DNA from: a bacterium
GTDB taxonomy: Bacteria > Patescibacteriota > Minisyncoccia > Phycocordibacterales > UBA9973
Assembly (NCBI GenBank): GCA_037200905.1
Contig: JBBCGN010000006.1
Span: 1-50,418, forward strand
Length of the DNA stretch: 50,418 nucleotides
Direction of reading: 5' to 3'
Shown: positions 3,328-43,685 of the stretch, in pieces
How positions within the stretch are numbered: the stretch's first letter is position 1
How the letters are laid out: each line of letters begins with the position of its first letter
Notes under the pieces: model-generated
Told to the model about the DNA's origin: nothing
Seen by the model: only the letters and a program-made list of their open reading frames with translations
Databases searched by the model: none
Program-made: the position numbers and the translations under genes

Positions 3328-4308
3328 ATGAATACATTCAAACAACTGTTAGCAAAACCGAAAATCGCCATTCCCGCATCTATCATCATCGTCGCCCTGT
3401 TGACGGTCTTCGCATACGGCCGCATCGGCGTGGCGCCGGCCGTGCCGTCTACGGTAGGCCTTTCTAGTTCGCAATCCGCCGTCGTATCCGGCGGCAACGT
3501 ATCGCTCTCGTTCGCCAAAAGCGGCCGCGTGGAATCCGTGCTGGTAAAAGAGGGCGACGCCGTCCGCGCGGGCCAAGTGCTCGCCAAGCTTTCCGCTCCC
3601 GATGCCGAAGGCGCAGTAGCGCAGGCCAAGGGCGCCCTCGATCTCGCCCAGGCCCCAGTACGCCTCTCTCAACTCGCAGTACAAGACGGCGAAGGAGCAG
3701 CAGGATCTCATGGTGGCCAATGCCTACAAGACCATGGTATCGGGTTCGCTCGAAGGCGTGCCGAGCCATCAGGACCAGAACACGCCGATAATTTCCGGCA
3801 CCTATGCCTGCGGCACGGAAGGCTCGTACAGATTGAAGCCGTATAGTTCCGGCGATTCGGATTCGGGCTACTCCCTGGCCGTTCTGGGGGCTCGAGAATG
3901 TTATTATTCCCGTGAAATACGACAATGCCGTGCCGCTCGGCACGTGCGGCCTCGAGATAAAGTTCAATCACGTGAACAGCTTCGACTCGAGCACGACCTG
4001 GACCATCAGCGTACCGAATACCAAGGGGCAGCGCATATCTTGCCAACAAGAATGCTTATGATCTCGCCGTCGCCAATCGCGACAAAGTCCTCGCCGATCT
4101 CGAGACGAACATCGGCACCAATACGACCAACAGCGTCGCCAAGGCCCAGATCGACGCCGCACAAGGCGCGTACCAGGCGGCTCTCGGCGCGTACCAGAAC
4201 AACGTCATCGTGGCTCCGGTTGCCGGCACCGTCACCTTCGTCGATCCGGACCTGAAAGCGGGACAATCGGCAGTCTCCGGCAAATCAGTCATTAGCATTA
4301 ATCAATAA
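3328..4308 (+). CDS. Efflux periplasmic adaptor (HlyD/MFP family) with inserted domain, frameshifted
   Basis: N-terminal TM, SLSFAKSGRVESVLVKEGDAVRAGQVLA lipoyl half-motif, NVIVAPVAGTV second half-motif. Confidence 0.8.
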
Positions 4309-11195: not shown

Positions 11196-13818
11196 ATGGA
11201 AGAAAAAGTGACGGTACAGACGCCCTGGTTTTTCCCGAGCGACGAAGTCCTGCGCAAGCTGCGCACCTCGCCCGACGGCCTGTCCGAAGAGGAGGCGGCA
11301 AAGCGCCTCGCGCGCTTCGGCAGCAACGATTTCCGGAAGAAGAGCGCCATCAGCATCCCGAAGCTCGCCCTGAAGCAGATCATGAGCCCGCTCATCTTCA
11401 TCCTCATCGGTGCGGGCATCCTGACGGCCGTGCTCGAAGAATGGTCCAACACCGCGGTCATCGCCGCCGCCGTGCTCGTGAACGTCGGGCTCGGGCTGTA
11501 CCGCGAATACCAGGCGGAAAATACCCTGGAAAAGCTCGTCACCTATATCAAGGACCGCTCGCGGGTGATGCGGGGGCGGGAACGAGCGGGAGATAGAATC
11601 TTCTCTCCTGGTGCCCGGAGACATCATCAAGCTCTCGTACGGTTCCCGCGTGCCGGCCGACGCCCGCATCATCTCGACCAACAATTTCAAGATCGACGAA
11701 GCCATCCTGACCGGAGAATCGGTGCCGGAAACGAAGACCGCCGAGTCCCTGGCGGAATCCGCGCCCATGGCCGACCGCCTGAACATGGCCCACGCCGGCA
11801 CCCTCGTGGTGGAAGGCTTCGCCGCGGCAGTGGTGGTGGAGACGGGCAACAGGACGGAGATAGGCAAGATCGCCGACATCGTCTCCGGCACCGAGCGCGC
11901 GGTGACGCCCATCCAGAAAGGCGTCAATCAGCTCTCGTGGTACATCTTCATCCTGACCATGCTCATCATCACCGGCATTTTCGTTCTTGGAGTTTTCCGC
12001 GGGGAATCGGTGCTCGAGATGCTCATCCTCTCGGCGGCCGTGGCCGTGGGCGCCGTGCCGGAATCCCTGCCCATCGCCCTGACCATCATCCTCGCGGTGG
12101 GCTCCGACCGCATCGCTTCCAAGAAGGGCATCGTGCGCAAGCTCGCCGCCGCGGAGACCCTCGGCTCCGTCACCCTCGTCATGACCGACAAGACAGGCAC
12201 GCTGACCAAGGCGGACATGCAGCTCGTGGGCATCGACACATTCGACATGCTGCGCGCGGGGACGTACGCCGAGCCGGGCCTCGCGAGCTTGTCTCCGGAG
12301 CAGAAAGCCGTCCTCGCCACGGCTTTGCAGAATATCGACATCATCGTGCAGAATCCCGCCGGTGCCGAAAAGGACTGGAAATTCGTCGGGCATCCCTTCG
12401 AGGTGAACATCGCCAAGGCTTCGGTAGCGCATGGCATCCCGCTCGGCAAGGCCTTGGCGGAAAAGAATCCGCTGCATATCCCGTTCAATTCTTCGCACAA
12501 ATTTTCCGTCTCGAGGCAGGGGAACGATCTGGTCATCATGGCGCTCCGGACATCCTGCTCGAGCGCTCCGACGTGGACAAGGACACATATGTAAAGGTGC
12601 TCGGGTGGATAGAGCGGGCGAGCGAGGGCGGCAAGAGGCTGATCGCCGTCGGCACCCTCAATACCGAAAAGGCCGAGGATGTGCAGGTCGATTCTATCCG
12701 GCACATCGCTTTCTCCGGCATCCTTTCTTTCTTCGATCCCGTCCGTCCGGAAGTGCCCCTCGCCATGAAGAATATCGAAGGGCACGGCGTGAAAGTCGTC
12801 ATCATCACCGGCGACCTCAAGGGCACGGCCGTCTCCGTGGCGCGCAGCCTCGGCTGGACCGTCGCCGATGACGAGGTCCTGACCGGAGAGGATATCCATG
12901 CCATGACCGACGAGCAGCTGCTCGGAGTGATACGAGGGATTAAGATATTCGCCCGGGTGACGCCGGAAGACAAGCTGCGCATCGGCAACCTGTACCGCGC
13001 GCAAGGCGAAGTGGTGGCCATGACCGGAGACGGCGTGAACGATTCTCCGGCCCTGAAGGCCATGGGACATCGGCATCTCTCTCGGCTCCGGCAGCGACGT
13101 GGCCCAGAGCGCCGCCGACCTCGTCCTCCTCGACGACAATTTCCAGACCATCAGCATGGCCATCGACGAGGGCCGGCGCATCCTCGCCAACATCCGGAAA
13201 GTCTTCGTGTACCTGATGTCGAACGCCCTCGACGAAGTCTTCGTGGTGGGCGGCAGCCTGCTCCTTGCGCTGCCCCTGCCGCTCACGGCCTTGCAAATCA
13301 TCTGGGTGAACCTCTTCACCGGCAGCCTGCCGGCCCTGTCCTTCGCCTACGACGAGAACCTCGACCGCGGCGTCCGCAACAAGAAGCTCTTCAAGAAAGA
13401 ACTGCTGACCACGGAGGTGAAAGTGCTGTCCTTCGGCCTCGGCACCGCGAGCTCGCTACTGCTCTTCTTCCTGTATTGGCTACTGCTCCAGTACCATGTC
13501 GACATAAAGGTCGCCCGCTCTGTCTTCTTCGTCTGCTTCTCGATCTACGTGCTGGTGATCGCCTTTTCCTTCCGGAGCCTCTACAAGCCGCTGTTCTCCT
13601 ACAATCCCTTCTCGAACAAGAAGCTCAACATCGCCATCGCGAGCGCCGTGGCCATCCTCGTGGCCACCATGTGCATCCCGCCCGTGCGCAATCTCTTCGG
13701 CATCGCGCCCATGCCGCTCTCCTGGCTGTGGCTCGTAGTAGTGTGGATGGTCGTGAACGTGGCCTTGGTGGAGATCGCCAAGCGGATATTCCGGATGAGG
13801 ATGCGCTCGTCGGGATAA
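11196..13818 (+). CDS. P-type cation-transporting ATPase (type II-like), frameshifted
   Basis: DEAILTGES, AVGAVPESLP, DKTGTLT phosphorylation site, ITGD, FARVTPEDK, MTGDGVNDSPALK. Confidence 0.95.
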
Positions 13819-13911
13819 AAGCCGGCCACCGCGAGACGCTGCCATTGACTTTTCATGATAAACATGCTAACATATAAAGCGTAACGAGTTTTTAACAAAA
13901 TAAATATAACA

Positions 13912-14224: not shown

Positions 14225-14266
14225 GGTGAAATGAGCTTGTATTCCAAGGCTGAAAGAGCATATTGA
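14225..14266 (+). repeat. Distal fragment of the tRNA-Glu-linked att-like repeat (copy G')
   Basis: CAAGGCTGAAAGAG[C/T]ATATTGACTTTT shared with 15013-15039. Reads GEMSLYSKAERAY*. Confidence 0.55.
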
Positions 14267-14333
14267 CTTTTATTTAAAATATGATATACTATATAACGTA
14301 ATCCCGATTTTTCACAATTAAATATATCGCCTC

Positions 14334-14933
14334 ATGGATCGCATTATTTCTTCCCTCGGAATGATCGCAGGAGTGATTGCTCTTATGGCATTTATTCCTT
14401 TCATTATTGCAATTCTGTCGAAAAAAGCTAAACCGAGTATCATTACCTGGACCACGTGGGCCATCGTCAACTTGTTGCTCTTAAAAAGCTATTACGATAG
14501 CGGAGCGCATAATACTCTTTGGCTGCCGATTACTTTTTTCACAGGAGACGTGATTATCTGTCTGCTTTCGCTCAAATACGGAGAAAAGATAATCACGAGG
14601 TTCGATAAGATATGCATTGCGCTTACCGTGCTCAACATTCTCGGAATAGTATTGTTTTCGTACGACAAGCATGCGGTGCTGGCGCTGTCAGTTATCACCT
14701 TGTTTGTCGGAGGATTGCCAACGGTCAAAAAATCTTGGCTACGCCCTCAAAATGAGAACAGATTAGTATGGTCGATGTTCACAGTCGCTGCAGTTCTCAA
14801 TCTTCTTTCGATAGAAGATTGGTCGCGATGGGAAATCATTGCTCATCCGCTATACGTATTCCTTATCGATGTTGGCGTTGCCACGATCCTTTGGATCAAA
14901 CGACACAAACAACCTGCAATTGTTAAATCGTAA
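14334..14933 (+). CDS. Multi-pass membrane protein with PQ-loop-like internal repeat
   Basis: Intact ORF, two similar halves (P..IIAIL..K.KP..TW and PTVKKSW..P..E...W), own promoter and terminator. Confidence 0.7.
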   Translation: MDRIISSLGMIAGVIALMAFIPFIIAILSKKAKPSIITWTTWAIVNLLLLKSYYDSGAHNTLWLPITFFTGDVIICLLSLKYGEKIITRFDKICIALTVLNILGIVLFSYDKHAVLALSVITLFVGGLPTVKKSWLRPQNENRLVWSMFTVAAVLNLLSIEDWSRWEIIAHPLYVFLIDVGVATILWIKRHKQPAIVKS

Positions 14934-14981
14934 TCGCGAAATCCTTAAAGCCCCATCCAGATATGGGGCTTTTTTATTTTT

Positions 14982-15034
14982 GTGACCCGTCGCAAGGGAA
15001 TATGCCGAAATACAAGGCTGAAAGAGTATATTGA
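14982..15034 (+). repeat. Internally deleted att-like repeat (copy G)
   Basis: GTGACCC core then AGGGAATATG. Reads GNMPKYKAERVY*, with the TGA inside a TTGACT box. Confidence 0.65.
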
Positions 15035-15102
15035 CTTTTATAAATCAATATGCTATAATATACATAAGAAAACAATTTTTTGACAATCAAATACACACAA
15101 TC

Positions 15103-15682
15103 ATGAAAATCAGCACTTTCTTTTTCGGAACTGCAATCATCGTTTTTTCTTCTTTTATCGCTTCATGCGGAGACTCTGAAGCCACAATGGCCATGCGCGC
15201 CAAACAGATTGCGGAGGACAGCATCGCGAAAGCGGCCGCAGCCCTTGCGCAAGCCAAAGCTGACAGCGCCGCCAAAGCCGAAGCTGCGATTACGGAATTG
15301 GTACCTGAAACTATTTCTGTTACAGAAGTAACAAGTACGAAATCCTCCAAAGAAGAGTTCAATAACGAAGGCTTGGCGGAAGTTAAAGCATCTTTCGGCA
15401 TTCACATCATTGCCGCAGGCAAAGCCTATGACGTGCAGGTAGAAAATGAAGACATGAATCACGAAGGCGGTAGCATTGAGAAATACGAAGACATGGACAA
15501 GCCCATCGCAGAAACTCACAAGCTCCGCGCCGGACATCCTTTCCAAGAATGTCACGAACTTTATCCTGTCAATCAACGGCAAGAACGAAGTTAAATCCTT
15601 TATTATGAAGGAAGAGATGAGCGGTGAAGCGGGAAAAGTGGGCACATACAAGCCCGCCGTAGTGATATGGAAAGCCCGCTGA
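15103..15682 (+). CDS. Putative lipoprotein, frameshifted near 15535
   Basis: Signal peptide with IASC lipobox and Ala-rich linker. Confidence 0.65.
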
Positions 15683-15724
15683 TGCGCCGAGAGAATTTTG
15701 GTTAGTAATAAAATCCCACGTGGT

Positions 15725-15755
15725 AGCCGATCAGAATATTCTGATCGGCTTTTTT
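15725..15755 (+). terminator. Intrinsic terminator, perfect 26-bp palindrome
   Basis: AGCCGATCAGAATATTCTGATCGGCT plus T-run. Confidence 0.75.
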
Positions 15756-15843
15756 ATTCGGCATACGGGAATATTATTGACTTTTACTACATAGTATGAT
15801 ACTATGTATGCGAAATAATCTTTTTAAACTTAAACCCTAGAAC

Positions 15844-16372
15844 ATGATACACGGTATTTCGACAGGCAGGCCCGGAGCCACGCGCTTCAGCCTTCGCGGC
15901 ACGGTGCTTAAGCACGTCACCCACACGACCGGCTGGTGGATATTCAAAGAAACATTTTACGGCATCCAGATCCAGCTCGATGAAAAACTGTAAAGCTGTG
16001 CGAAAAGCAATTCGGTAAGATTTACAATGTCGACGGATTTGAGGCCTCTATAGCGGGTGTCGTCAGTGTATTTTTTCCGCAAGAGGATATTGAAGACAAA
16101 GGCTTTGCGCCGGAACCAATGTCGGTATCACTTTTGCGAAAAGCGGACCGCTTGAGCAGTTCTTTAAAGGATCAGAGATGGTGATGGTAGTAGATGTGGT
16201 AAAGATTAAAGACGGCGTTCGCCTTGAAAACGAGCCGCTCCTATCCAGCTTTCTCTCTTATGATCGGCCGCACCAGATTTTGACAACAGGACTAAATTCC
16301 TGTTGTTTTTCTATTTGTGATCCTAGCGGTGCAGTATTGGAATACTGTAGTAGGGAATATAAGGGGATTTAA
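15844..16372 (+). CDS. Hypothetical protein in fragments, running into repeat copy A
   Basis: TTGACT promoter at about 15777, MIHGISTG.. start, open pieces in several frames up to 16372. Confidence 0.35.
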
Positions 16373-16379
16373 GATATAG
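16317..16379 (+). repeat. tRNA-Glu-linked att-like repeat (copy A)
   Basis: GTGATCCTAGCGGTGCAGTATTGGAATACTGTAGTAGGGAATAT. Confidence 0.85.
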
Positions 16380-16437
16380 AAAAATAAAAAACTCGTCAAA
16401 TTTGACGAGCTTTTAGTCTTAGATACTTCTTTAGAAA

Positions 16438-16785
16438 TTATTTTCGTTTCTTAGCATCAATAGAAAAACGATATAATCCGTAGAGACGAAGCATGGGCAA
16501 TATACCATCTTGAGTTGGTTCTTTGGAAACCAGCATAACCTGTTTGTCTTTTAGGTTGTTTGCTATTTTCCATTTTTTGAAAAACTTATTCGCCTCACGC
16601 CAAAGATAACCTAGTTCTTTTTTAGTTATCTTATTTCGATCAACTGTGATTGTCGCCTTGCGATCAATAACTGTAACGCTTCCGTGCAAATTAAAATTGT
16701 TATCTGCAACGGAGAAAGAAAAATTTGCTTCCGTATTAGAGGGAAGTAGATAACGGAATAATCCGTCTTTTACTGTCTGTATCAT
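16438..16785 (-). CDS. Hypothetical protein (cassette gene)
   Basis: Intact 115-aa AT-rich ORF between copies A and B, with own TTGACA promoter and terminator. Confidence 0.65.
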   Translation of the reverse strand: MIQTVKDGLFRYLLPSNTEANFSFSVADNNFNLHGSVTVIDRKATITVDRNKITKKELGYLWREANKFFKKWKIANNLKDKQVMLVSKEPTQDGILPMLRLYGLYRFSIDAKKRK

Positions 16786-16858
16786 TTGAGCTTATTTTTT
16801 TGTTGAAGAATTTGATGTTCACCTTTAAAGTAGCACGAAATAAATTGTTTGTCAATTT

Positions 16859-16933
16859 GTGATCCTAACGGTGCTGAATTGGAATACTGTAGTAGGGAAT
16901 ATGTTTAAATGCAAGATTGAAACAAGCTATTGA
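16859..16933 (+). repeat. tRNA-Glu-linked att-like repeat (copy B)
   Basis: GTGATCCTAACGGTGCTGAATTGGAATACTGTAGTAGGGAATATGTTTAAA...TATTGA. Confidence 0.85.
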
Positions 16934-16996
16934 CTTTTCATATAAAATATGCTTTACTATATAAGTAAACAAGTTCTAAAACAAATCAATACAAAT

Positions 16997-17293
16997 ATGG
17001 AAAAAGAACCGTTTGAAGAAAGAATGGTCCGGGTCCAGTGGCCCGAAACGTTTATCGGAAGATGGGTGGCAACCACCCTCTACGGCACTCACATGGAAGC
17101 AGATGTCGTCATTGCAGAGAGTCCTTCCGGCGTCATGTGTTTCGAAAGCAAAGATCACGGCCTGGCCTATTATGAGACGAAAGAGGTAAAGTTAATGGAG
17201 ATAAAAAAAGATTATCCGCGGCTTTACATAAGAGTCTTTGTGTGTGGAAGTACGGAGGAGGAGTTGAAAGAGCGGAAACTCAAGACGGCATGA
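16997..17293 (+). CDS. Hypothetical protein (cassette gene)
   Basis: Intact ORF after a TTGACT promoter, with terminator AACCATCCC-aca-AGGGATGGTT at about 17315. Confidence 0.65.
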   Translation: MEKEPFEERMVRVQWPETFIGRWVATTLYGTHMEADVVIAESPSGVMCFESKDHGLAYYETKEVKLMEIKKDYPRLYIRVFVCGSTEEELKERKLKTA

Positions 17294-17436
17294 CATGATT
17301 GCTGTCTGCAGTGAACCATCCCACAAGGGATGGTTTTTTATTTTGTCCTGAGATAAGCATTTATTACCTGACCGGTCAGAATATTCTGGCCGGTTTTTGA
17401 TTTTTCCGGAAAAAATGCTATTATCATCATGTTTTT

Positions 17437-17512
17437 GGCCCTTATCGTCTAACGGTTAGGACACCGCCTTCTCAAGGCAGTAATCAGAGTTCGATTCTCT
17501 GTAGGGTCACCA
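17437..17512 (+). tRNA. tRNA-Glu(CTC)
   Basis: Cloverleaf, anticodon loop TT-CTC-AA, GTTCGATTC T-arm, encoded CCA. One extra T in the acceptor 5' strand. Confidence 0.92.
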
Positions 17513-17599
17513 TTTAGAGAGCGCTCGAGAAGCGTCAAGATAATATTCAGTAAGTCTGTATACTACGAATTTAACTGAAAAGAGATATAATTTGAAGAT

Positions 17600-18315
17600 A
17601 TGGAAAAATCACCCGAAGAGACAAAAAGGATTGAGGCCTCGATGGAATTTGTCGAAAAATACTACACCGACGACATTGTCGAGAGAGCGAGTCCTGAAAG
17701 CGTGTGGGCAGCGCAGTGGGCGACCTATGTAGACGAAAATCCGTGCTTGATGTGGCATGCGGCCCGCAATTCTATGATGACGCATTGGCATTTGCTCAAA
17801 TTCCGAAAAAGTTCGTAGGGGTAGACCTCAATGAGGCCAACATTAAATTTTTAAAAACCTCCTTACACCCCAATATCATTAAAGCCAAGACAGAGCTTGA
17901 AAGAAACGGGTCGCAAGTTGAATTGCTTGTACAAGACATTACGGCAAGGAAGCCTGAATTCGATAGACAGTTCGACTCGGTATTCGCATCAGGAATCATC
18001 GGCAATTTTGGCATTGCAGAAACTAAAGCAGTCTTACAAAACATCAATTCCTATCTCGCTCTTGGAGGCCAATTCGTCATGGTGAGTTGGGGAGATGATT
18101 ATCTGAGCAAAGAAAAGAGTGAGGAAAGAGAGGCATCTGGATGGTATCAAAAGCAAGAATTGAAGCCGGAAGATTATGCTCGCTTAATCAGCGAGGCCGG
18201 CTTTACAATAGAAAAGCAAGAAGTGCATGAGGTCGCGGATCCTAAAGAGTATGAATGGGGCTGCATATTCGGCTTTATAGCGAGGAAAACCGTAGATAAA
18301 GAATCTTCAAACTAA
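17600..18315 (+). CDS. Class I SAM-dependent methyltransferase, frameshifted
   Basis: SVLDVACG, VGVDLN, QDIT, FDSVFASG, LALGGQF. Confidence 0.85.
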
Positions 18316-18320
18316 TTACA

Positions 18321-18392
18321 CTAAACTATTTCCGCCTTAAATTTAAGCATATTCCCTATCAAATAGTTCCAATTCCGCACCGTTAGGCTCAC
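18321..18392 (-). repeat. tRNA-Glu-linked att-like repeat (copy C)
   Basis: Reverse strand GTGAGCCTAACGGTGCGGAATTGGAACTATTTGATAGGGAATATGCTTAAATTT. Confidence 0.85.
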
Positions 18393-18440
18393 TGATAGAA
18401 AAATAAAAAATCCCGCACAATTTGTACGAGATTTCATGGA

Positions 18441-18947
18441 TCAACATTTAATGCTTCTGACGCTCTCAAAAATAGAGTTCAGTTGTTCTGCTAATAAATC
18501 GAGCTCTTTTCTCTTTTGACTGCAATCTAGAATATCCTTTGGGTATTGGTCTATGTACTCTTGTATGAGCACAGTCATTCTTTCACAAAAAGGATTATAT
18601 CTTATGTACTGCATCAATTCAGAGGAACCAAATTCAGGAGAGGGATTGTTCTTGATACGAAATTTATCTTTAGAAATAAAAAGCACAGTTTGACCAAAGT
18701 CATTGATACTATAAGAACAATGTTTGATTCCCACCAATATGCCAAAGTCAATCAAGCTTTTTAGAAAAGTTCCTTTTTTATCATTAAGAACTTTTAAGAG
18801 GTCATTTCGTTTTGTTGTGATTGTTTCGAATAGTTTTCTTAACTCTCCATCTTTATCAGAGATAAGCTCTTGAATCTTCTCGATTTCATTTTGGGCGTTC
18901 GATAGATATTTTTCAGCATTCTCCAGACCATTAAAGATTTGTTTCAT
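18441..18947 (-). CDS. Hypothetical protein with coiled-coil N-terminus (cassette gene)
   Basis: Intact 168-aa ORF with own promoter and terminator between copies C and D. Confidence 0.65.
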   Translation of the reverse strand: MKQIFNGLENAEKYLSNAQNEIEKIQELISDKDGELRKLFETITTKRNDLLKVLNDKKGTFLKSLIDFGILVGIKHCSYSINDFGQTVLFISKDKFRIKNNPSPEFGSSELMQYIRYNPFCERMTVLIQEYIDQYPKDILDCSQKRKELDLLAEQLNSIFESVRSIKC

Positions 18948-19008
18948 ATTTACGATTTAAGTATTTGAAGAATTTATTTCTGTCCCTATAATATCATATT
19001 AATAAAAG

Positions 19009-19083
19009 TCAATAGGCTAATTCCTCTTTAAATTTAAACATATTCCCTACTATAAAGTTCCAATTCAGCACCGTTAGGGTCAC
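19009..19083 (-). repeat. tRNA-Glu-linked att-like repeat (copy D)
   Basis: Reverse strand GTGACCCTAACGGTGCTGAATTGGAACTTTATAGTAGGGAATATGTTTAAATTT. Core TAGGGTCAC is identical to the tRNA 3' end. Confidence 0.87.
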
Positions 19084-19266
19084 AAATCTTTTGAGAGAGC
19101 AAACTGCTTTGCTCTAGAAAAAATTTGTGAAGACGGAGGCATATGTTTGCAGTGGCAAACAAGCCGAGTCCGGGTCTGGAAAATTTATGAGCGACGGCGA
19201 GTAAATTATTGTGGATCACTGATAGAAAAATAAAACTCTGTAGGATTTCCTACAGAGTAAAAATAA

Positions 19267-19710
19267 CTAAGCCACTGCTGAACTAACTTCTCTAAAAGTA
19301 ATAGAAGTAAGATTCTTGAAAGGTACAATGAGGTAACTTTGAACATGGTTGTCTACTTCTTCTGAATCAATACCTATCATCTCGTCATTATCGAATTCTG
19401 TAATTACAGTATATTTTGCAGAATCTTCTATTGACGGAAGGATAAATAGAACGGAGCGCTCATCTACTGCATACTTTCTCTTCTTGCCTTCAGGGTCTGC
19501 AACGGCATACATATCAATAGCTTGCGCGATCTTGTACTCGTGTGTACCTGGTTTTCCCTTGAGCTCGTAACTGAATATTATGCTCACGACAAAGTTACTT
19601 CCTTTTCCAAAAAGTTCACTGATCTTGTCCATCCAAAATATCGCCAATTGCTCATTATCATTGGTATCTGTTGGCTTTTTAATGACAATTCCATTATTTT
19701 CAGTATTCAT
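19267..19710 (-). CDS. Hypothetical protein (cassette gene)
   Basis: Intact 147-aa acidic ORF with terminator CTCTGTAGG-attt-CCTACAGAG. Confidence 0.65.
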   Translation of the reverse strand: MNTENNGIVIKKPTDTNDNEQLAIFWMDKISELFGKGSNFVVSIIFSYELKGKPGTHEYKIAQAIDMYAVADPEGKKRKYAVDERSVLFILPSIEDSAKYTVITEFDNDEMIGIDSEEVDNHVQSYLIVPFKNLTSITFREVSSAVA

Positions 19711-19796
19711 TGTTAAGGTTTTATGTGAATGTGCAAATTTGTTTACTATTAGACTTTATAACATATTTATGAAAAATCAATAGCTTTTATGAAAAA

Positions 19797-19871
19797 TCAA
19801 TAGCTAACTCCTCTTTAAAATTTAAGCATATTCCCTACCAGATAGTTCCAATTTTGTATACAAAGGGTCAC
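19797..19871 (-). repeat. tRNA-Glu-linked att-like repeat (copy E)
   Basis: Reverse strand GTGACCCTTTGTATACAAAATTGGAACTATCTGGTAGGGAATATGCTTAAATTT. Confidence 0.8.
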
Positions 19872-19899
19872 CTTTAACAGCTCGCACGAGAAGCGTATT

Positions 19900-20346
19900 T
19901 TGGAACAAAAAGTAGTACTTATCATTGGATTGCCTGGATCAGGAAAAACCACCTACATTGAACAGCATCAAGACATGTTTCATAATTTTGTCGTCTGTGA
20001 CGATTATCACAAATCAGCGCTGCAAAAATCCCGAGCATTCAACGACAGCATTTATTACAATGGTGTGCGAACGGCTCTTCTATCAGGCAAGAGCGTTGTC
20101 ATGGCCGACATCGCCTGGTGTAAATTTGAGCGCTTGGACATAGTAACTAAGGGGCTCCAAGAGCTTTGTAAAGAACTGAAAATAAATCCACCGATAGAAT
20201 TTCTTTATTTTGAAAACAATCCAGAAGCATGCAAAAGAAATGCGGTACACCGCGGGAGAAAAGAACGAGTCGATCGGGAAATAGAGTTTATTGATAAAAC
20301 CAGCAACAATATCGCATTCCAAACGAGGCTATTTCCATACAAATAG
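19900..20346 (+). CDS. P-loop kinase (AAA_33/nucleotide-kinase-like)
   Basis: IIGLPGSGKTT, VVCDD, SVVMAD, CKRNAVHR lid-like motif. TTG start, 3' end uncertain. Confidence 0.75.
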   Translation: MEQKVVLIIGLPGSGKTTYIEQHQDMFHNFVVCDDYHKSALQKSRAFNDSIYYNGVRTALLSGKSVVMADIAWCKFERLDIVTKGLQELCKELKINPPIEFLYFENNPEACKRNAVHRGRKERVDREIEFIDKTSNNIAFQTRLFPYK

Positions 20347-20454
20347 TCGATGCACGACAAGGGTCGGAATGATATACTGGAAAGGCACTAATTAATATTT
20401 CTATTAAAAAAGCGTCCTTATAACAAGGACGCTGGTTTTTGGATTTTTAGACAG

Positions 20455-21839: not shown

Positions 21840-21916
21840 AACTGTCTGTGTGATTTTAAAATTTCAAAAAACGAAAAATATATCGGTTACTATTATATAG
21901 ATTTACCGATGTAATG

Positions 21917-23027
21917 TCAAACCAGGCCCGCAGGCCTTGCAGCTATTCGTCGGAACGGGGCTTTTCGAGCTCCAACGTGGCCAATTCGGGGCTCGTACCG
22001 GCGATCTTGGTGACGTCTTTGTCTATCATCTTGAGGGCCTTGTTCGAGGCGTTGTAGTGGTTGGTGACGGTGCCGATGGCGTTGCCGAGCTTTGGTGTGG
22101 TATTCGCCGTAAGCGTTCAAGTGCTTGCCCAGGTCTTCGACTTTCTTGATGATCTCTTTGGCGGATTCCTCTATCTTGAAAGCCTTGAAGCCGTAGAGCA
22201 CGGACTGGAGATATGCCATGAACGTGGTCGGGGAGATGATGATGACTTTCTTCTCGTTGTAGGCGTAGTCGATGAGGTTGCGGGTGTTCACCTTTATCGA
22301 GCCGACTTCGTTCACCAAGAGGTCGTAATAGATGGCCTCGGCGGGAATTTACATGAAGGCGAAGGGCAGGGTATGCTCGTCCGGGCGGACGTATTTCGCC
22401 GTCTCGTCGATGCGCTTCTTCAAGTCGTTCTTGAATTCCTTTTCCAATTCTTCGCGCTTGCTTGTCGTCCATGGCGTGCACCACGCGGTCGTAGTTGTCG
22501 AGCGAGAACTTGGCATCGATGGGGATTGATGCCTTCCTTGGTGACGATGACGGCGTCCACCACTTCGCCGTTCTTGAATTCATACTGCATCTGGTACTGG
22601 CCGGGGGCGAGAGTGTTTGAAAGAATCAATTCGAGCGAAGCTTCGCCCCAGTTGCCGCGCTGCTTCTGATGCTTGAGAGTCTTTTCCAGGCTGCCGAGCT
22701 TCTCGGCGATGGTCACGAACTCGCGTGTGGCTTCGTTGGCCTTGGTCTGCTCGCGGGTGACGTCGTTGAGGCTCTTGTTCATCTGCTCGTTTATCTCTTT
22801 GATAAGGCGCTGCGAATCGGAGAATTGCGTACGCACGGCGTCCTGCATATCCGCGGCGGCTCTCGGTCATCTTTGAATCGAGGGGCGCGGGCCAGTTCCG
22901 CCATCTGCTGCTGGAGCAGGAGGAAAGACTCGCCCTTGTCGTCGGGCTTCTTCCTTTTTTCGAGCCACAGGTAGGCGAAAACTACTCCGGCGGCGGCGCT
23001 CACGATGATCCAAAAGATGTTCGGCAT
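21917..23027 (-). CDS. rmuC: DNA recombination protein RmuC, frameshifted
   Basis: N-terminal TM, coiled coil, RGNWGEASLE, PIDAKFSLDNY, IIISPTT. Confidence 0.92.
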
Positions 23028-30197: not shown

Positions 30198-31412
30198 TTA
30201 CATTTTCTGGGCGATTCTTTCAAGGGCCAGTACGAAAGCGCTCAAGCGGAGATTGGTATTGAGCTCTTTGGCTTTGGCGAAAATGCCCTGCGCCGCCGTG
30301 TCCATGAGGCCGTGCAGTTTCTCGTTCACCTCGTTTTCCGTCCAATGCTCTCCGACCAGATTCTGCTGCCATTCGAAATACGAGACGGTGACGCCGCCGG
30401 AATTCGCCAATATGTCGGGAATGGCAGGAATATTTTTTCTTGAACAATATTTCATCGGCTTCCGGTGTCACTGGCCCGTTGGCAAGCTCTAATATGACCT
30501 TGGCTTGCACATTGCCTGCGTTCTGGGCGGTAATGACATTCTCAAAGCAGCAGGTATCAGGACATCGCAGGGAAGTGCGAGCATTTCTTCGTTGGTCATA
30601 TAGGTACTGTCGGGAAAATCTTTCAGCGAGCCGGTACTTTTCTTGTATTCCGACAGGGTTTTGATGTCGAGGCCGTTCGCATTATACGCCGCGCCTTTCG
30701 AATCCGAGATGGCGATGACCTTGTGTCCGTGCTCTATGAAAATCTCTCCTGCGTTGCTGCCGACGTTGCCGATGCCCTGGATGACCACACTGCATGACTC
30801 GGGCAGGCCGAGCTCTGCGCGCAGGGAATCGAAGACATAAAAACCGCCGAGACCGGTGGCTGCAGTGCGGCCTTCCGAGCCGCCTTGTTCGACCGGCTTG
30901 CCGGTAATGTGGCATCGGTCTTTTCTCCGGTGATCTTCTTGAATTCATCATTCATCCAGGCCATGATCTCGGGCGTAGTATTCACGTCAGGGGCAGGCAC
31001 GTCTTTCTGCGGGCCGAGGTAGCTTGCCATGCCGCGCACCCAGCCGCGGGAGAGGCGTTCGAGTTCGCCTTTGGAGAGAGTCTTCGGATCGACAGTGATG
31101 CCGCCTTTGCCGCCGCCCATGGGGATGTCGGCCACGGCGCATTTGAGGGCCATCCAGAAGGCCAGGGCCTTCACTTCGTTTATTTCCGTATCCTGATGAT
31201 AACGGATGCCGCCTTTGTAGGGGCCGCGGGCGTTGTTGTATTCCACCGGTAGCCGTCGAAGACTTTCGTAGAGCCGTCGTCCATCTCTACGGGGATGGAG
31301 ATTTTGATGTCGTTGTCCGGTATGCGCATGCGCGCCAAGAAATCGGCATCGAAGCTTTTGATCTTCGCTGCTTGTCGAGCTGGGTCATGGCGTTCTCGAA
31401 CGGATTTTGCAT
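30198..31412 (-). CDS. gdhA: Glu/Leu/Phe/Val dehydrogenase (glutamate dehydrogenase-like), frameshifted
   Basis: [52 protein letters not shown]. Confidence 0.9.
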
Positions 31413-33357: not shown

Positions 33358-33559
33358 TGGCCGCACCAAAACCCGGAACTAGTTCCGGGTTTTTATTTTT
33401 GGACTAATCATCGAAGGAAGCCGCTATATATTGACAAATAACATAAACATGGCAAAATGGCTATGAAAAAAATTATCTTTGATCTTCAAAATCAACCTTG
33501 TTGAATTGCATGTTGACTTTTGTATATTAAAATGCACAATAAAGCGAAACTTATTTACA

Positions 33560-33910
33560 ATGAAAACAGAAAAAATACTTGAAGGTGCAATTCACCTTGA
33601 CAAGCTCATGGGCATTCAGGTTGCCGTCGTTCACCATCTAGGTACTGATGCGTTCAGCAGACCCCAAACAGGTTGCACGTATTATCAAGTCATCAATGAA
33701 TACGACCTTGGTAATTACGACGACATTGAAGATGGTGCGGAAGTGACCTTCAAAGTTGAAGAGCCGGGGATAAGCATCTACCGCTTCGGGGTCACGCAGA
33801 CTCGCTCTCAGTGCACCATTTTGACAATCAAGCGCAAAGGACAAATCATTGAAACTACCGACTACAGGTATGAAAAAGAGTACAGTAAACAAAAATCCGT
33901 GATTGTCTGA
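33560..33910 (+). CDS. Hypothetical protein (cassette gene)
   Basis: Intact ORF from MKTEKILEG, with TTGACT promoter and terminator. Confidence 0.6.
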   Translation: MKTEKILEGAIHLDKLMGIQVAVVHHLGTDAFSRPQTGCTYYQVINEYDLGNYDDIEDGAEVTFKVEEPGISIYRFGVTQTRSQCTILTIKRKGQIIETTDYRYEKEYSKQKSVIV

Positions 33911-34070
33911 TATTTATTAGTTTTTCAAAGCCGAACCGAAAGGACGGCTTTTTATTTTGTGAGCCTATGACCAGTAGAGACTTCTGGTCCCTTGCCCTAT
34001 AAAGCTATGCAAGACTTTGTCAGTGTATTATTTCGACCCTTCTCGGCTGCTCGGACCAGCTCTCTCATTG

Positions 34071-34149
34071 GTGAGCCTAGTGGTGCGGAATTGGAACTGG
34101 ATAGTAGGGGAAGAATATAAGGGGATTTACGATTACATTATACTATTGA
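34071..34149 (+). repeat. tRNA-Glu-linked att-like repeat (copy F)
   Basis: GTGAGCCTAGTGGTGCGGAATTGGAACTGGATAGTAGGG..AATATAAGGGGATTT...TATTGA. Confidence 0.8.
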
Positions 34150-34212
34150 CTTTTAATATATAATGTGATATTGTATATTTGAAATAAGCTTTTAAAACTA
34201 AAAATCAATAAA

Positions 34213-34554
34213 ATGGATAAAACAGATTTCGAATCAGAGAACTGGTTCATTACCCGCTACGATAAACATCACGGTGTAAGAATTAGTAAACGGGAAGATG
34301 ACAAAGTCATTTATGACATTGAATGCATGATAAAATACGGAATGTACGGTGTCACACCAACGAATGATACTCCAAAGATAGTACACGAATTACTATCAAT
34401 AACCGGAGTAAATCTTGTTGCTTATGATCCTCGTCCAGAGAAAGCCTGTGTTCGATTCATCAACGTTAACTCTTATTACAGAGAGAATGAGGTTCTCAAC
34501 CCTGCTAAGTTTATTTTGTCGAAATACAAAAACAGAGAACCCGTTCTTTATTGA
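34213..34554 (+). CDS. Hypothetical protein (cassette gene)
   Basis: Intact 113-aa AT-rich ORF after copy F and its promoter. Confidence 0.65.
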   Translation: MDKTDFESENWFITRYDKHHGVRISKREDDKVIYDIECMIKYGMYGVTPTNDTPKIVHELLSITGVNLVAYDPRPEKACVRFINVNSYYRENEVLNPAKFILSKYKNREPVLY

Positions 34555-34704
34555 TTAAGAATTTATAAATCCTTTGACCATAATGGTTGAAGGATTTTTT
34601 CTTATAGTAGCTCGAACCTTCTCGTACACCCGGTAAAGTTCGAATAAATTATTGACATAACTACAAAGTATGTTATACTGTACTTAAATTTAAAATAAAC
34701 AACA

Positions 34705-34995
34705 ATGCATCAAATCATTATTGTAGGCGCTGTAATCCTTGTAGGAATTCTCGCCATTTTGTTCTTCATGGTTTGGCTTCTATGGTTCAGAAGCTCTAAA
34801 GACTCTGTTTGGCCACAAATCACCAAATGTAATATCTGTGACAAGCAGGTATACGTGTGGCAGCTGCACGAACGCAGGAATATGGATATATCCATTTCAG
34901 GAGATATATTTCTGGGCAATATTTCCGGCTCAGCGATTGTTCATAAAAAATGTGAAGGTAGTCCGAAATCCAAAGTCACTGTAAACAGAGGTTAA
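34705..34995 (+). CDS. Small membrane-anchored protein with CxxC...HxxC motif
   Basis: N-terminal TM, KCNICDK, HKKCEG. Confidence 0.6.
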   Translation: MHQIIIVGAVILVGILAILFFMVWLLWFRSSKDSVWPQITKCNICDKQVYVWQLHERRNMDISISGDIFLGNISGSAIVHKKCEGSPKSKVTVNRG

Positions 34996-35106
34996 AAAAA
35001 CATCCGATGTCCGCTATATGTATATGGCGGACATTTTTTATTTGCTTCAATTATATCTCTTTTTCCAGATCTCGTAGCTATGCAAGCTTACCGAATTATT
35101 GCCTCA

Positions 35107-35154
35107 ACGCTACTCGAGCGCTCTCTAAAAGGTGAGGATTCAGCAGGTAGAACC
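35107..35154 (+). repeat. Copy of the tRNA-Glu(CTC) downstream flank plus a decayed tRNA 3' end
   Basis: 35107-35135 matches the reverse complement of 17507-17535 at 27/29 nt. Confidence 0.75.
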
Positions 35155-35239
35155 TTTCGATTCGTTGCCCTGCAAGGTTATTTCTAATAATTAGCGACTA
35201 ACATCCCGACCCTTCTCGTGAGTGTAAATTTTTGCTAGC

Positions 35240-35809
35240 TTAACAAAATTATTTCCTCGGCAATATTTTGAAAATTCATATTACTTGTATCAAAAATCGT
35301 ATGGGGTATAGGAATAATTTTCAGTAATTCGAGTAACTCGTCCTGTTGGCTAGAATAGTATCTAACGATTTCCTCTTGAGTATTTCCTTTTGTATTAACA
35401 TAATTATTCCACTCGTCATCTCTATGGGATTGAGCCAGAGAATTCTTTCTTCAAGTTTATTATTTGGTATCTCTAGGAAACAAATCTGTGCACTATTTTC
35501 CAATAACAAAGAAGCGCTTTCTGTGAAATCTTCGATATGTGCTCTAGTGCGCCAGATATGAGTAAGATAGAGACGGTCAAAAATAAGTATGCCTTTGCTC
35601 GAAGAAAGATATCTATTTAAAAGACCTGTAATATGGTCATTTGCTGTTACTGGATCAGTATTTTGAAGCAATGGCATTAGAGTTTCTTCCTCGCCGATAA
35701 ATGTGTAATCAAGTCCTCTTCGAGTGAGTATCTTTTCTAGTTCATTCTTCACGGAAGTTTTACCGCTAGTGGCGATGCCCTCAAGCATGATAATGCTAGT
35801 TTTCTTCAT
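35240..35809 (-). CDS. Thymidylate-kinase-like P-loop kinase, 3' end frameshifted
   Basis: IIMLEGIATSGKTS, LIFDR, ERIL. Confidence 0.65.
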
Positions 35810-35835
35810 AATATTCTAAAATAAAATCTTGTAAT

Positions 35836-36443
35836 TCAGTCGGGGAAGAGGACTATTCCTTTAAGATTTTCATGCGGTTCCCTTGTAACGTATGACTCAT
35901 CGTGAGATCCCCAAAGAACAGCAACTGTCGGTATTTTAGCACGGTCGGCTTCTCGAATATCGCCCAGCGTGTCGGTAACAAATAGCATGTCTTCTTTTTT
36001 TATCTGATACTTTTCTTCAATCATGTTAAATTTCTCAACTTTATTTCTTGAAATTTCTGCCGAGGCTACCAAATCAAACATATCTCGTATACCTGCTTTT
36101 TCCAAAAGCGGTAGTAGATTTCGCTCCATAGCAGAAGAATTGATGGTCAAAATGTAATCCTTTGCTTGAGGAATTTTAGTAATTCAAACATTCCGTCATA
36201 CATTCCGACTTCTAATTTTTGTTGTGAGTATGCCAGTTTTCTTGATTCTTTTTCTTCCTCTGTCCGAATAACGGCAGTATTGTTGAGTTTGAACTTCCGT
36301 ATTTCTTCATGGAAGTTCCCGGCCAATAACTCTTTGTGATGGCTTCTTGTCAGATAAGGATAATCTTCTAGAAAAGCATTCTCAGCAATTGTTACAGAGT
36401 CAAAGAGAACCCCGTCCATATCGAAGATGATCAATTTTTTCAT
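35836..36443 (-). CDS. HAD-superfamily hydrolase, frameshifted
   Basis: IIFDMDGVLFDS, LTINS, FVTDTLGDI, AVLWG. Confidence 0.85.
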
Positions 36444-36497
36444 ATATCTGATTATATCAGAAGAGTCTATTTCTGAGTTTCTCGTGCGCGCTGCTGT

Positions 36498-36572
36498 TGG
36501 TGACCCTACAGGGAATCGAACCCTGATTACCGCCTTGAAAAGGCGATGTCCTAACCGTTAGACGATAGGGCC
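36498..36572 (-). tRNA. tRNA-Glu(TTC)
   Basis: Cloverleaf, anticodon loop TT-TTC-AA, encoded CCA. Nearly identical to 17437..17512. Confidence 0.95.
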
Positions 36573-38078: not shown

Positions 38079-38168
38079 GGAGACGTGGCTGAGTGGTTGA
38101 AGGCACTGGTTTCGAAAACCAGCATATGGGAAACCGTATCGTGAGTTCAAATCTCACCGTCTCCGCCA
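38079..38168 (+). tRNA. tRNA-Ser(CGA)
   Basis: CTGGT-TTCGAAA-ACCAG anticodon arm, long variable arm, G discriminator, CCA. Confidence 0.95.
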
Positions 38169-38266
38169 GTAGTTTTGAAAAGTAACAGTAAAAATTGCCT
38201 TATTTTGGGCTATATTTCAAAACCAGAAATTGCTAAAATAGGTCAACCCTGAAGGGATTCGAACTT

Positions 38267-39009
38267 ATGGATAAAACGCAATTTATAAAAACCTGTAATC
38301 AGCTTCTTGAGGCATACGAAACAGGTTTGCTTGGACAAACCGTGATGCCTGAGGATTCCAATCTGGAATTGAAAAGATGGATCGAGAAGATCGCATCGCG
38401 TATTTTACGCTCCCGATGGCACTTAACTATCAGCGTGATAGCTATAAACTTTGGGAAGCTGCCCTAAAGACTTTTAATGATCCCGAAACTCGATTCGTAT
38501 TCGATGTTGAGAAAGTCTCAAAAAGCTCAGAGGACGAGGTTCGAGCCGCGTTAATGAAATACAAAGTCGCGCTTCAACCGAATAAGCATGTAAATACGTG
38601 GCGCACGATAGCAAAGACCATCTATGAAAATTGGGGATCGTTCACGAAATTCTTTGATGCGACTGAAGGAGATTTTCTTGCTCTCAAAGAAATAGTGAAT
38701 ATAGATCATAAAAAGGGATTTCCATATCTATCAGGTCCAAAGATATTTAACTATTGGTCATTCATAATAAGTACCTACGGCGGAGTTTTTCTTATGAATC
38801 GAGATCATATAGAAATTGCTCCCGATACTCATATCACACAGTGTTCAGTAAAGCTTGGAGTAATTACCTCCGATGAAGCGCTATCACTTACAAAAGATGT
38901 AATCTCTGCAAAATGGCGCGAATTACTGAAAGAAAGTGGAATCGATCCGATCGACATGCACCCGCCACTTTGGTTCTGGAGTAGAAACGGCTTTCTTTAC
39001 CAGAATTAG
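38267..39009 (+). CDS. Hypothetical protein with HhH-GPD (DNA glycosylase)-like motifs, frameshifted near 38360
   Basis: GFPYLSGPKIFNYW and IAPDTHI resemble the HhH and (A/P)VDTHV motifs. Confidence 0.5.
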
Positions 39010-39060
39010 ATATTTTAGTTACCCTATACAAAACAGTATAGAATCCGTAAAATAATCACC

Positions 39061-39243
39061 ATGACAAAGCCCAAGCAAGTTAAAAATCATGCTGGTATCT
39101 CACTAGAACGTCTGGCGGAGCTTCGACATGCCACACTTATAGCTTCTACTGGTTCGTCACTTCGTCTCTCTGGCTCAAAAGTCACCAACAAACAGGTCGA
39201 GCAGATTTTGAACGCAATCAGTAAACCTTCTGGGCAAAAGTAG
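39061..39243 (+). CDS. 60-aa protein resembling a Fic-family N-terminal segment
   Basis: ATLIASTGSSLRLSGSKVTNKQVEQIL resembles the SIGSSTRIEGS..VE.LL pattern, from recall. Confidence 0.35.
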   Translation: MTKPKQVKNHAGISLERLAELRHATLIASTGSSLRLSGSKVTNKQVEQILNAISKPSGQK

Positions 39244-39582
39244 GAACATCAAATAAGGCAGGGTTTTCTTTGTATATTTGTCTTAGGTTCCGTATAATTC
39301 TGTCTAAGTTCGCGAAATTGAGCCGCTTCGGTTCAAAGTTGTGCCAACCATCACCGCAGTTTTGAACGCAGTGAGAAACTGCGGAGCGAGCGAGCAAACT
39401 GCTTTGCTCGCGTGTGAGGTTTGAACGACGGAGTGTGAAATTTTCAGTAGGAAATTTCCACAAGTCGGTGCCCAGACCGGAATTTTTCGACGGAAAAATT
39501 CCGAATCGCGGGCAAATCTCACCGTCCTCCGCAAAAAGAAAAGCCCTTGCATGTATATACATGCAAGGGCTTTCGGATTGCC

Positions 39583-43547: not shown

Positions 43548-43685
43548 ATAAATAGGGGATTAGTGGATAATTGCTGATAAAAGGCCGATAAAAAACTGAT
43601 ATTTCCCTATCATAGCAGAAAATAAAAAAAAAGCAAACTTTTTGCTTTTTCCGGAAAAATCGCCGAAAATCGGGGGCGTCACGCA

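Follow-up and report, generated by a model that had tools for sequence, protein, structure and literature searches.

Organisation of the island downstream of tRNA-Glu(CTC)

The window analysed here, 50,418 bp in length, is one entire contig of a bacterial genome of 677 kb and six contigs which is 72% complete. The host genus belongs to Candidatus Nomurabacteria/Paceibacterota, within the Candidate Phyla Radiation (CPR). Its two tRNA-Glu genes are accompanied by islands in which small genes alternate with a repeat, made of an arm and a short core that resembles the tRNA 3' end. The subject of this work is the origin of these islands and their relation to elements with a large serine recombinase (LSR) that occupy the same tRNA in related genomes. 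The guanine plus cytosine (GC) content of the two repeat-bearing stretches is 0.36-0.44 vs about 0.55 in the flanks. A covariance model of the arm, built from sequence only and run over all contigs of the genome, matched this contig in six copies of 65-80 bits and in a seventh, partial copy of 22 bits; arms and cores are confined to the two low-GC islands of this contig and occur nowhere else in the genome. There is no recombinase gene in the window.

The tRNA-Glu(CTC) gene (17437-17512, + strand) was found by ARAGORN and scores 48.4 bits with the Rfam tRNA model. It ends in TAGGGTCACCA, and its final bases, TAGGGTCAC(CA) at 17501-17511 (+), would be the crossover core on the attL side. To the right of this core begins a flank family named P'1 (17510-17600, +; starting with CATTTAGAGAGCGCTCGAGAAGCGT), with copies at 35132-35041 and, in part, at 19872-19896 after the repeat R4; a likeness to P'1 after the repeat R5 of the second array was seen by eye and by no search. 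The minus strand of the P'1 flank is weakly similar to an LSR 3' end (blastx, 42% over 62 aa to an LSR C-terminus), mostly in the part coded by the tRNA. The cargo of unit A is a gene for a class-I S-adenosylmethionine-dependent methyltransferase (17600-18315, +; Methyltransf_31, 1.5e-10), which a frameshift splits into 17600-17818 and 17704-18315. It is followed by arm and core R1 (18308-18392, +; 73.9 bits), in which the P half-site is joined to the core TAGGCTCAC (18384-18392) and then to the tail TGATAGAAAAATAAAA. Unit B (18393-18947, -) consists of a T-tail and hairpin terminator (18393-18440) and of the orphan ORF168 (open reading frame, ORF; 18441-18947), which is read from a promoter located inside arm R2.

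Arm and core R2 (18999-19083, +; 80.4 bits) has the core TAGGGTCAC at 19075-19083, next to which lies a terminator of the native tRNA type. The gene-less unit C (19084-19212, +) opens with this terminator hairpin (GAGAGCAAACTGCTTTGCTC), and is bounded by R3 (19213-19235, +), an armless site with the core-like GGATCAC (19213-19219) and the tail TGATAGAAAAATAAAA, which forms the left end of unit D. Unit D (19236-19786, -) contains a hairpin terminator, the orphan ORF147 (19267-19710) and a promoter region with a 20-nt tandem duplication (19766-19805). Arm and core R4 (19787-19871, +; 66.4 bits; core AGGGTCAC at 19864-19871) continues into a P'1-type flank (CTTTAACAGCTCGCACGAGAAGCGT). The last gene is ORF148 (19900-20346, +), taken from the ORF list and identified with Pfam as P-loop kinase-like (AAA_33), and the low-GC island ends near 20440.

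The four downstream cores, all in the same orientation, had been described in a sequence-only reading of the locus and were checked in the sequence. The arm that this reading placed before three of them, of some 60 nt, is present and is longer than noted (85 nt with the core, by repeat search); the three copies R1, R2 and R4 are 72-76% identical to the reference copy, with E values of 1e-18 to 4e-23 and 66-80 bits in the covariance model. The 20-mer TCACTGATAGAAAAATAAAA was confirmed to be identical at 18389 and 19216. The contents of the units were also as claimed (methyltransferase, ORF168, a gene-less 135-bp stretch, ORF147, P-loop kinase), with the methyltransferase gene being frameshifted.

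The commonest unit, read from the core, consists of GTGAnCCTA, an arm of about 75 nt, one ORF of 113-187 aa, a hairpin terminator with a T-rich tail (TTTTATTTTTCTATCA) and the next core. At least five arms terminate in TTGAC(T), and after about 17 nt come a -10-like box and then the ORF. An alternative layout is found at ORF115, where the promoter abuts the core and reads away from it, and the arm comes after the terminator. A TTGAC promoter and a hairpin terminator are predicted from the sequence for every unit, and both orientations are present. No gene follows the arms R1 and U2. Cores bound units B, D and E, which have neither LSR nor replication protein (Rep) genes.

The tRNA end and the arm-bearing sites have only TAGGGTCAC(AA/CA) in common, which is 9-11 nt; the part of the arm that is like a T-arm has a 4-nt insertion and differs from the tRNA. 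To the right of the cores there are at least three unrelated types of sequence, namely TGATAGAAAAATAAAA with a terminator, AAAT with a promoter or hairpin, and CATTTAGAGAGCGC; the variants named at the cores are TGATAGAAAAATAAAA, AAATTGACA and CATTTAGAGAGCGC. The layout of hybrid sites, attL (B|P') and attR (P|B') with a short shared core, is present here, with R2 then running into the native-type terminator. When attP dyads were looked for by eye, about 10 of 25 positions on the P' side of G080, a related genome, agreed with the P half in inverted form, and the right-hand flanks in the window were at chance level. RNAalifold of the six arms gave four invariant pairs, -0.97 kcal/mol, no covariation and no attC-like fold. 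An Rfam scan of 14-22 kb returned nothing besides the tRNA, the preQ1-II and Qrr matches being far under their gathering scores.

The cargo of the islands comprises the frameshifted methyltransferase, two P-loop kinase-like proteins, a frameshifted HAD hydrolase and orphans. The orphan ORFs, including ORF168 and ORF147, had no significant Pfam match, and PADLOC gave only sub-threshold matches for ten cargo ORFs. Comparison of the island ORFs by blastp with each other and with the islands of the relatives revealed no shared cargo. ORF168 has no homologue among 5.8 billion proteins and was found on no contig besides this one.

The half-site in related genomes

The 26-nt core-proximal part of the arm (TTCCAATNNNGNANNNNTAGGNTCAC) was used as a search pattern, with at most one mismatch, against the 120 other genomes of the genus (121 including this one), and the reversed pattern served as control. 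Six sites were obtained here and sites were found in 12 of the 120 other genomes, with no match for the reversed control. In all 12 relatives the half-site is located downstream of, and direct to, a tRNA-Glu gene (CTC or TTC), at a distance of 0.7-7 kb. The sequence-only reading would have been contradicted by a repeat scattered over the genome; instead it is tied to the tRNA-Glu 3' end, in both islands of the window as in these relatives. Moreover the consensus half-site of the relatives, TTCCAATTCCGTATAATTAGGGTCAC, is identical across genomes whose GC at the locus varies between 0.35 and 0.42, which is not what an old, neutrally decaying scar would be expected to show.

A wider scan for the half-site, with one genome per species and 185,579 species, returned 19 contigs, and seven of the nine new loci that were checked lie in bins labelled as CPR. 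Another of the nine, L084, is a G000-like 26-mer in a Pseudomonadales-type (non-CPR) contig; it has no tRNA beside it and is likely a chance match, about two being expected in 596 Gb by our arithmetic. The G000-type arm pattern gave no match in metagenome contigs.

The repeats delimit one-gene units, as had been proposed, and comparable units that are bounded by cores and have no LSR are found in the loci L082, G080 and G109. Two units in L082 and one each in G080 and G109 have a core exactly at either end; in the latter two genomes this is a single unit of 640-680 bp between two motifs, and in G080 the unit, of 644 bp, lies directly behind an intact LSR element. In L082 a tRNA-Glu(TTC) is followed by three LSR-less units and then by pyrB; one of the units is a lone response-regulator receiver, and the half-site comes after terminators, without a promoter. 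The nearest related locus, L093, has the P-type ATPase, the tRNA and RmuC in common with the window and nothing else, and holds a different one-gene island that ends at the motif.

Some further observations were made in these loci. In L082 (JAQBRH010000003.1) the 3' end of tRNA-Glu(TTC) is interrupted by a gene-less insert of about 150 bp (3736-3885), with ACTCCCTGTAGGGTCA as a direct repeat on either side; this insert might represent a minimal scar or else be small in the way that unit C is. A 3.4-kb island lies between tRNA-Glu(CTC) and the motif in L041 (G087) and encodes an ATPase-like protein of 524 aa and a helicase-like protein of 348 aa, which by eye are a possible two-gene defence pair. 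In addition, a thioredoxin-like gene and a permease gene are inside the island in G102, and their homologues are beyond the motif in G087, which fits older layers having been pushed outward.

LSR elements at the same tRNA and the nature of the arm

The sequence-only reading suggested looking for a recombinase with the same arms at its flanks, and the LSR islands of the related genomes G128 and G080 do end at the motif. These islands start at the tRNA with a protein of 539-559 aa that has Resolvase, Recombinase and Zn_ribbon_recom domains. The LSR gene is followed by a 60-aa ORF, a rolling-circle Rep gene (PF23343, 1.2e-21; phrog_3419), variable cargo and the motif, and such autonomous elements are 4.7-6.4 kb long. 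Behind the last motif of G080 stands CATCAAGTGCTAGCACGAGAAAC, which corresponds to the sequence directly after tRNA-Glu(TTC) in the window, as expected of an attR. The statement that the array has no integrase holds in so far as the window has no recombinase; it applies to a decayed locus only, given that an LSR sits on the same tRNA in G128 and G080. An LSR gene was not found inside the units of the window, whereas these two relatives have one together with the same tRNA and P half-site, so that the units of the window are at most derivatives of LSR elements and not members themselves.

LSR homologues were found in 84 of the 121 genomes. At 19 of the 20 best loci that were checked a tRNA adjoins the LSR gene, tRNA-Glu in 10 of them, and most of these tRNA genes overlap the LSR 3' end. 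All six LSRs beside a tRNA-Glu that were translated to their own stop (G128, G080, G012, G017, G093 and G013) have this stop inside tRNA-Glu, and the C-terminal LSR peptides listed for G062 and G075 also extend into residues encoded by the tRNA. The tails are ...VTLPGIEPGL.A* in one clade and ...GDPTGNRTLI.GLK.RCPNR* in another.

When excision was simulated by joining the far-end arm to the LSR gene the frame stayed open and ended in ...SSLVTLIIRNWNQLFNQISGF..., the integrated form being ...SSLVTLPGIEPGLQP. Moreover, all 27 distinct arms of the relatives are open in the LSR frame for 18-39 codons and encode, apart from conservative replacements, VTLII(R/Q)(N/D)WNx(I/L)FNQIKGF; the search pattern covers only about half of this peptide, and the third frame stops at once. 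The six arms of the window, read in the same frame, encode V(T/S/I)L..NWN.(I/L/V)(V/I)GNM(F/L)KF, and in at least three of them the stop codon is within the -35 box of the promoter of the next gene. Because of the frame continuity, the 27 open arms and the related peptide in the window, the arm is, to judge from its coding capacity, the 3' end of an LSR gene, separated from the rest of that gene, and forms the P half of attP. It is not an attC-like site. Comparison of the window with 37 LSRs by blastx gave only matches to the tRNA-encoded tails.

The attR sites of other LSR subclades were not found when repeats of the tRNA end were looked for, and the arm model had no match in those loci. A scan of viral contigs for the LSR gave no relative. 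The only LSR of the present genome (C1:275462-276343, with a 468-aa frame) is on contig C1, in a low-GC island (0.36-0.43 vs 0.55; C1:270000-279000) that ends at tRNA-Gln(CTG), c[278446-278517].

Proposed origin of the islands

We consider it probable that a family of small LSR elements inserts at the extreme 3' end of tRNA-Glu genes in this genus and that the arms and cores of the window are the attachment-site scars of this family. It is shown that the sites form one family with a strict link to tRNA-Glu, that relatives have an LSR and a Rep gene at this very site, and that the LSR frame continues into the arm. A mini-replicon with LSR and Rep would integrate at the last bases of tRNA-Glu, with the crossover within or just after TAGGGTCAC. 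In the free circle the P arm would encode the last 18-39 codons of the LSR, and after integration the complement of the tRNA would encode the LSR tail. The P arm, now an orphaned LSR tail, would remain at the opposite end of the island and be followed by the core. Repeated integration at both tRNA-Glu genes, loss of the recombinase module and some rearrangement could have produced the low-GC stacks of single-gene modules, which would be self-expressed and delimited at the core. These units would be non-autonomous and would move only with an incoming LSR element, either in cis (by co-excision) or in trans. The arrival of the units of the window by LSR recombination, and its order, are inferred.

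The individual junctions can be interpreted in the same manner. The hairpin next to R2 (19097-19114) recurs beside other tRNA genes here and after tRNA-Glu(TTC) in G078, for which reason R2 looks like a genuine attR and is the best candidate for a true P|core|B' site on the native tRNA terminator. On the same grounds the gene-less 135-bp stretch of unit C is more likely to be native flank than a cassette. R1, R4 and R5 are best read as P|core|P'-type (attP-like) junctions between adjoining units.

Several points weigh against the LSR origin. Neither an LSR of the matching clade nor a Rep was found in this 72%-complete genome, the sole LSR being 25% identical and located at tRNA-Gln. The counts of codon positions and of synonymous and non-synonymous changes did not tell two open frames apart in the six local arms, and the frame is settled because the 27 arms of the relatives discriminate where these six do not. 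The right-of-core types are heterogeneous and by eye show little dyad symmetry with the P half, which argues that an LSR dimer is not their obvious binder and that several junctions may be dead or were never substrates. An attL site does not serve canonical LSRs as a target again, and textbook LSR chemistry therefore leaves the tandem stacks unexplained. A mirror-image array, located upstream of the tRNA, is also not predicted.

The sequence-only reading proposed that the units are living, minimal, integron-like cassettes that circulate as 0.6-0.9-kb circles and re-insert at the tRNA-derived core with a recombinase acting in trans. The exact core ends on both sides of units B, D and E here, of two units in L082 and of one each in G080 and G109 speak for such cassettes, as do the conserved ends around variable, unrelated cargo, the 20-mer shared by R1 and R3 in spite of the divergence of the arms, and the position of the G080 unit behind an intact LSR element. 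This explanation is nevertheless unlikely, as the right half-sites are mostly plain terminators or promoters, no cognate LSR is present in the assembly, no cassette is common to two genomes (ORF168 being on this contig alone) and the arms have no attC-like fold. Rather unlikely, too, is a stronger form of the LSR origin, in which the two tRNA-Glu genes of Nomurabacteria-like CPR bacteria are platforms of a true cassette system run by the LSR; LSR-less modules of one gene, each with a P half-site, would be captured, stacked, inverted and carried by the LSR and Rep mini-replicons, and the exchange of the LSR tail, encoded either by the arm or by the tRNA, would signal the free or the integrated state. 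If this were true, the version of its tail would inform the enzyme of its own state.

Islands made by tyrosine integrases, or modules moved by Xer as in integrative mobile elements exploiting Xer (IMEX) or pdif modules, with the link to the LSR coincidental, are very unlikely. It is true that tRNA 3' ends are classic targets of tyrosine integrases, that the only tyrosine recombinase of the genome is Xer-like (the single PF00589 match, on contig C1, with none in the window) and that, like pdif modules, the modules here are found in either orientation. Against this, tyrosine recombinases are never near the islands in the 12 relatives, the identity to the tRNA is 9-11 nt instead of a restored tRNA 3' half, the motif has no 11-6-11 dif-like dyad by eye, and LSRs are found on the tRNA with a frame that crosses the core. 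Strongly disfavoured, and the least probable of all, is the explanation of the arms as a promoter or leader repeat shared by small island genes, the likeness of the core to the tRNA being incidental. The TTGAC(T) and -10-like box before the ORF in at least five copies would agree with it. However, the L082 half-site comes after terminators and without a promoter, the half-site is always beside tRNA-Glu, the arm continues the LSR frame, and R1 and U2 precede no gene.

Comparison with known systems

As gene-accretion hot spots the islands belong to a type that is broadly known, with an unusual recombinase and an unusual host setting. Tycheposons of Prochlorococcus are elements inserting at tRNA genes, with integration and replication modules, in streamlined genomes; in their islands later arrivals push the earlier ones along, and degenerate remnants and extra partial tRNAs remain (bioRxiv 10.1101/2020.12.28.424599). 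A large serine recombinase is used by 27 of 937 tycheposons (same source). The present islands are alike in outcome, being linked to a tRNA in a streamlined genome and containing accumulated remnants. They differ in that the LSR frame spans the site and the repeat is a 9-11-nt core with an LSR-tail arm instead of a partial tRNA; with 4.7-6.4 kb and a rolling-circle Rep the elements are also smaller, and the host is a CPR bacterium.

The cis-mobilizable elements (CIMEs) of Streptococcus, of the ICESt1/ICESt3 family, are non-autonomous, flanked by attachment sites and devoid of recombination genes, and they are found in tandem with an autonomous element or in its place. They depend on tyrosine integrases, use the 3' ends of protein genes or of tRNA-Lys and have lengths in the kilobase range. 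Units B, D and E are similar in lying between cores without recombination or replication genes, as is the G080 unit behind its intact element, and by analogy co-excision with an incoming element would be their route of movement. They are of 0.5-0.9 kb with one gene each, unlike CIMEs.

Large serine integrases use short sites with little identity between attP and attB and integrate in a directional manner. The LSR of the relatives resembles those of phiC31, Bxb1, A118, SpoIVCA and CcrAB in having the Resolvase, Recombinase and Zn ribbon domains. Unlike these enzymes it targets a tRNA 3' end, and its gene overlaps its own attP and has its C-terminal tail exchanged. Reading frames that cross attP, so that the C-terminus changes on integration, are known from the immunity system of the mycobacteriophages BPs and Brujita and from archaeal integrases of the Sulfolobus spindle-shaped virus (SSV) type, in which attP is inside int. 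In those cases a repressor is changed or a tyrosine integrase is split, whereas the exchange here concerns only the final 12-39 codons of an LSR. According to Islander-type surveys, tRNA 3' ends are reserved for tyrosine integrases (PMC4383910). The present islands do not conform to that type, as there is no tyrosine integrase near the 12 islands and the tRNA identity is 9-11 nt vs the tens expected.

The description of the array as integron-like in outcome is correct for the result and not for the anatomy. Small one-gene units, a conserved site, unrelated cargo and a fixed platform are shared with integron cassettes. In contrast, no IntI, attI or conserved attC hairpin is present, and the units have their own promoters and terminators and occur in both orientations.

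In CPR bacteria, whose genomes are tiny, few routes of gene exchange have been recognised. LSR elements on tRNA 3' ends are common in this genus, and at tRNA-Glu they build hypervariable islands of orphan genes. The less familiar aspects are the LSR as a tRNA-targeting enzyme in the CPR, the LSR frame spanning its own site and the small, exactly bounded one-gene units. In the literature searched there was no paper pairing a large serine recombinase with the Candidate Phyla Radiation, and the 12 best-ranked results of a broader search of the CPR literature had no mention of a serine recombinase. Three aspects should be of interest to the field of mobile elements: tRNA genes are targeted by a serine instead of a tyrosine recombinase, the gene of this recombinase overlaps the attachment site and has its tail exchanged on integration, and modules of a single gene without recombinase end exactly at the crossover core. 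If the modules can be mobilised, they would constitute a second, mechanistically different way of building cassette arrays. Moreover, short defined sites and small enzymes could serve as integration tools.

The upstream array, the second array and other features of the window

A mirror-image array occupies 14240-17352 (+) upstream of tRNA-Glu(CTC). It may be headed by a promoter-only fragment (about 14240-14275), which was read by eye only, and continues with ORF199, the short inverted arm/core copy G (14982-15039), ORF187, a broken stretch of higher GC, the inverted arm/core U2 (16317-16392), ORF115 (16438-16785, -), the inverted arm/core U (16859-16938) and, at its right end, ORF114 (16949-17293) with its terminator. 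The proposal that units are stacked on the tRNA 3' end agrees with the downstream array, but simple stacking does not predict an array of mirror orientation upstream of the tRNA. A single inversion between two oppositely oriented tRNA-Glu arrays was considered as its origin and rejected, since on paper it cannot place an array upstream.

The second tRNA gene, tRNA-Glu(TTC), is at 36498-36572 (-; ARAGORN) and has the same core in its sequence. The second array lies downstream of it and direct to it (33400-36497, -). From the tRNA outward it contains the frameshifted HAD hydrolase (35836-36443), the P-loop ORF162 (35321-35809), a degenerate core with a P'1 copy (35041-35135), ORF96, ORF113, the arm/core R5 (34070-34154; 67.2 bits), the bare core TAGGCTCAC (33959-33967) and ORF143. 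On the opposite strand the flank downstream of tRNA-Glu(TTC) reads ISEFLVRAAV|GDPTG. This is weakly similar to the end of the clade-2 LSR, ISNFANVSL|GDPTG, for which reason a second LSR clade may have left scars here too.

Split genes and frame jumps were noticed, from blastx and the ORF lists, at 11196-13877, 17600-18315, 35836-36443, 21900-22900, 30200-31400 and 42360-43550. They are due either to indel errors of a long-read assembly or to widespread pseudogenes. The terminator hairpins at 15725-15755 and 17365-17395 share the loop-proximal motif CAGAATATTCTG (gccgatCAGAATATTCTGatcggc and ccggtCAGAATATTCTGgccgg, respectively) and form a small repeated terminator family.

In the stretch 38079-39420 another tRNA gene of the window, tRNA-Ser(CGA), is followed by an island of about 1.2 kb with a 210-aa ORF (38377-39009) and a small ORF. 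At the end of this island lies a degenerate copy of the tRNA-Ser 3' end (about 39331-39366; ...CCGCAGTTTTGAA vs CCGCCAGTAGTTTTGAA), and from this arrangement the island looks like a parallel integration scar at another tRNA. The hairpin that follows it (39392-39409) is the same terminator hairpin as that after R2.

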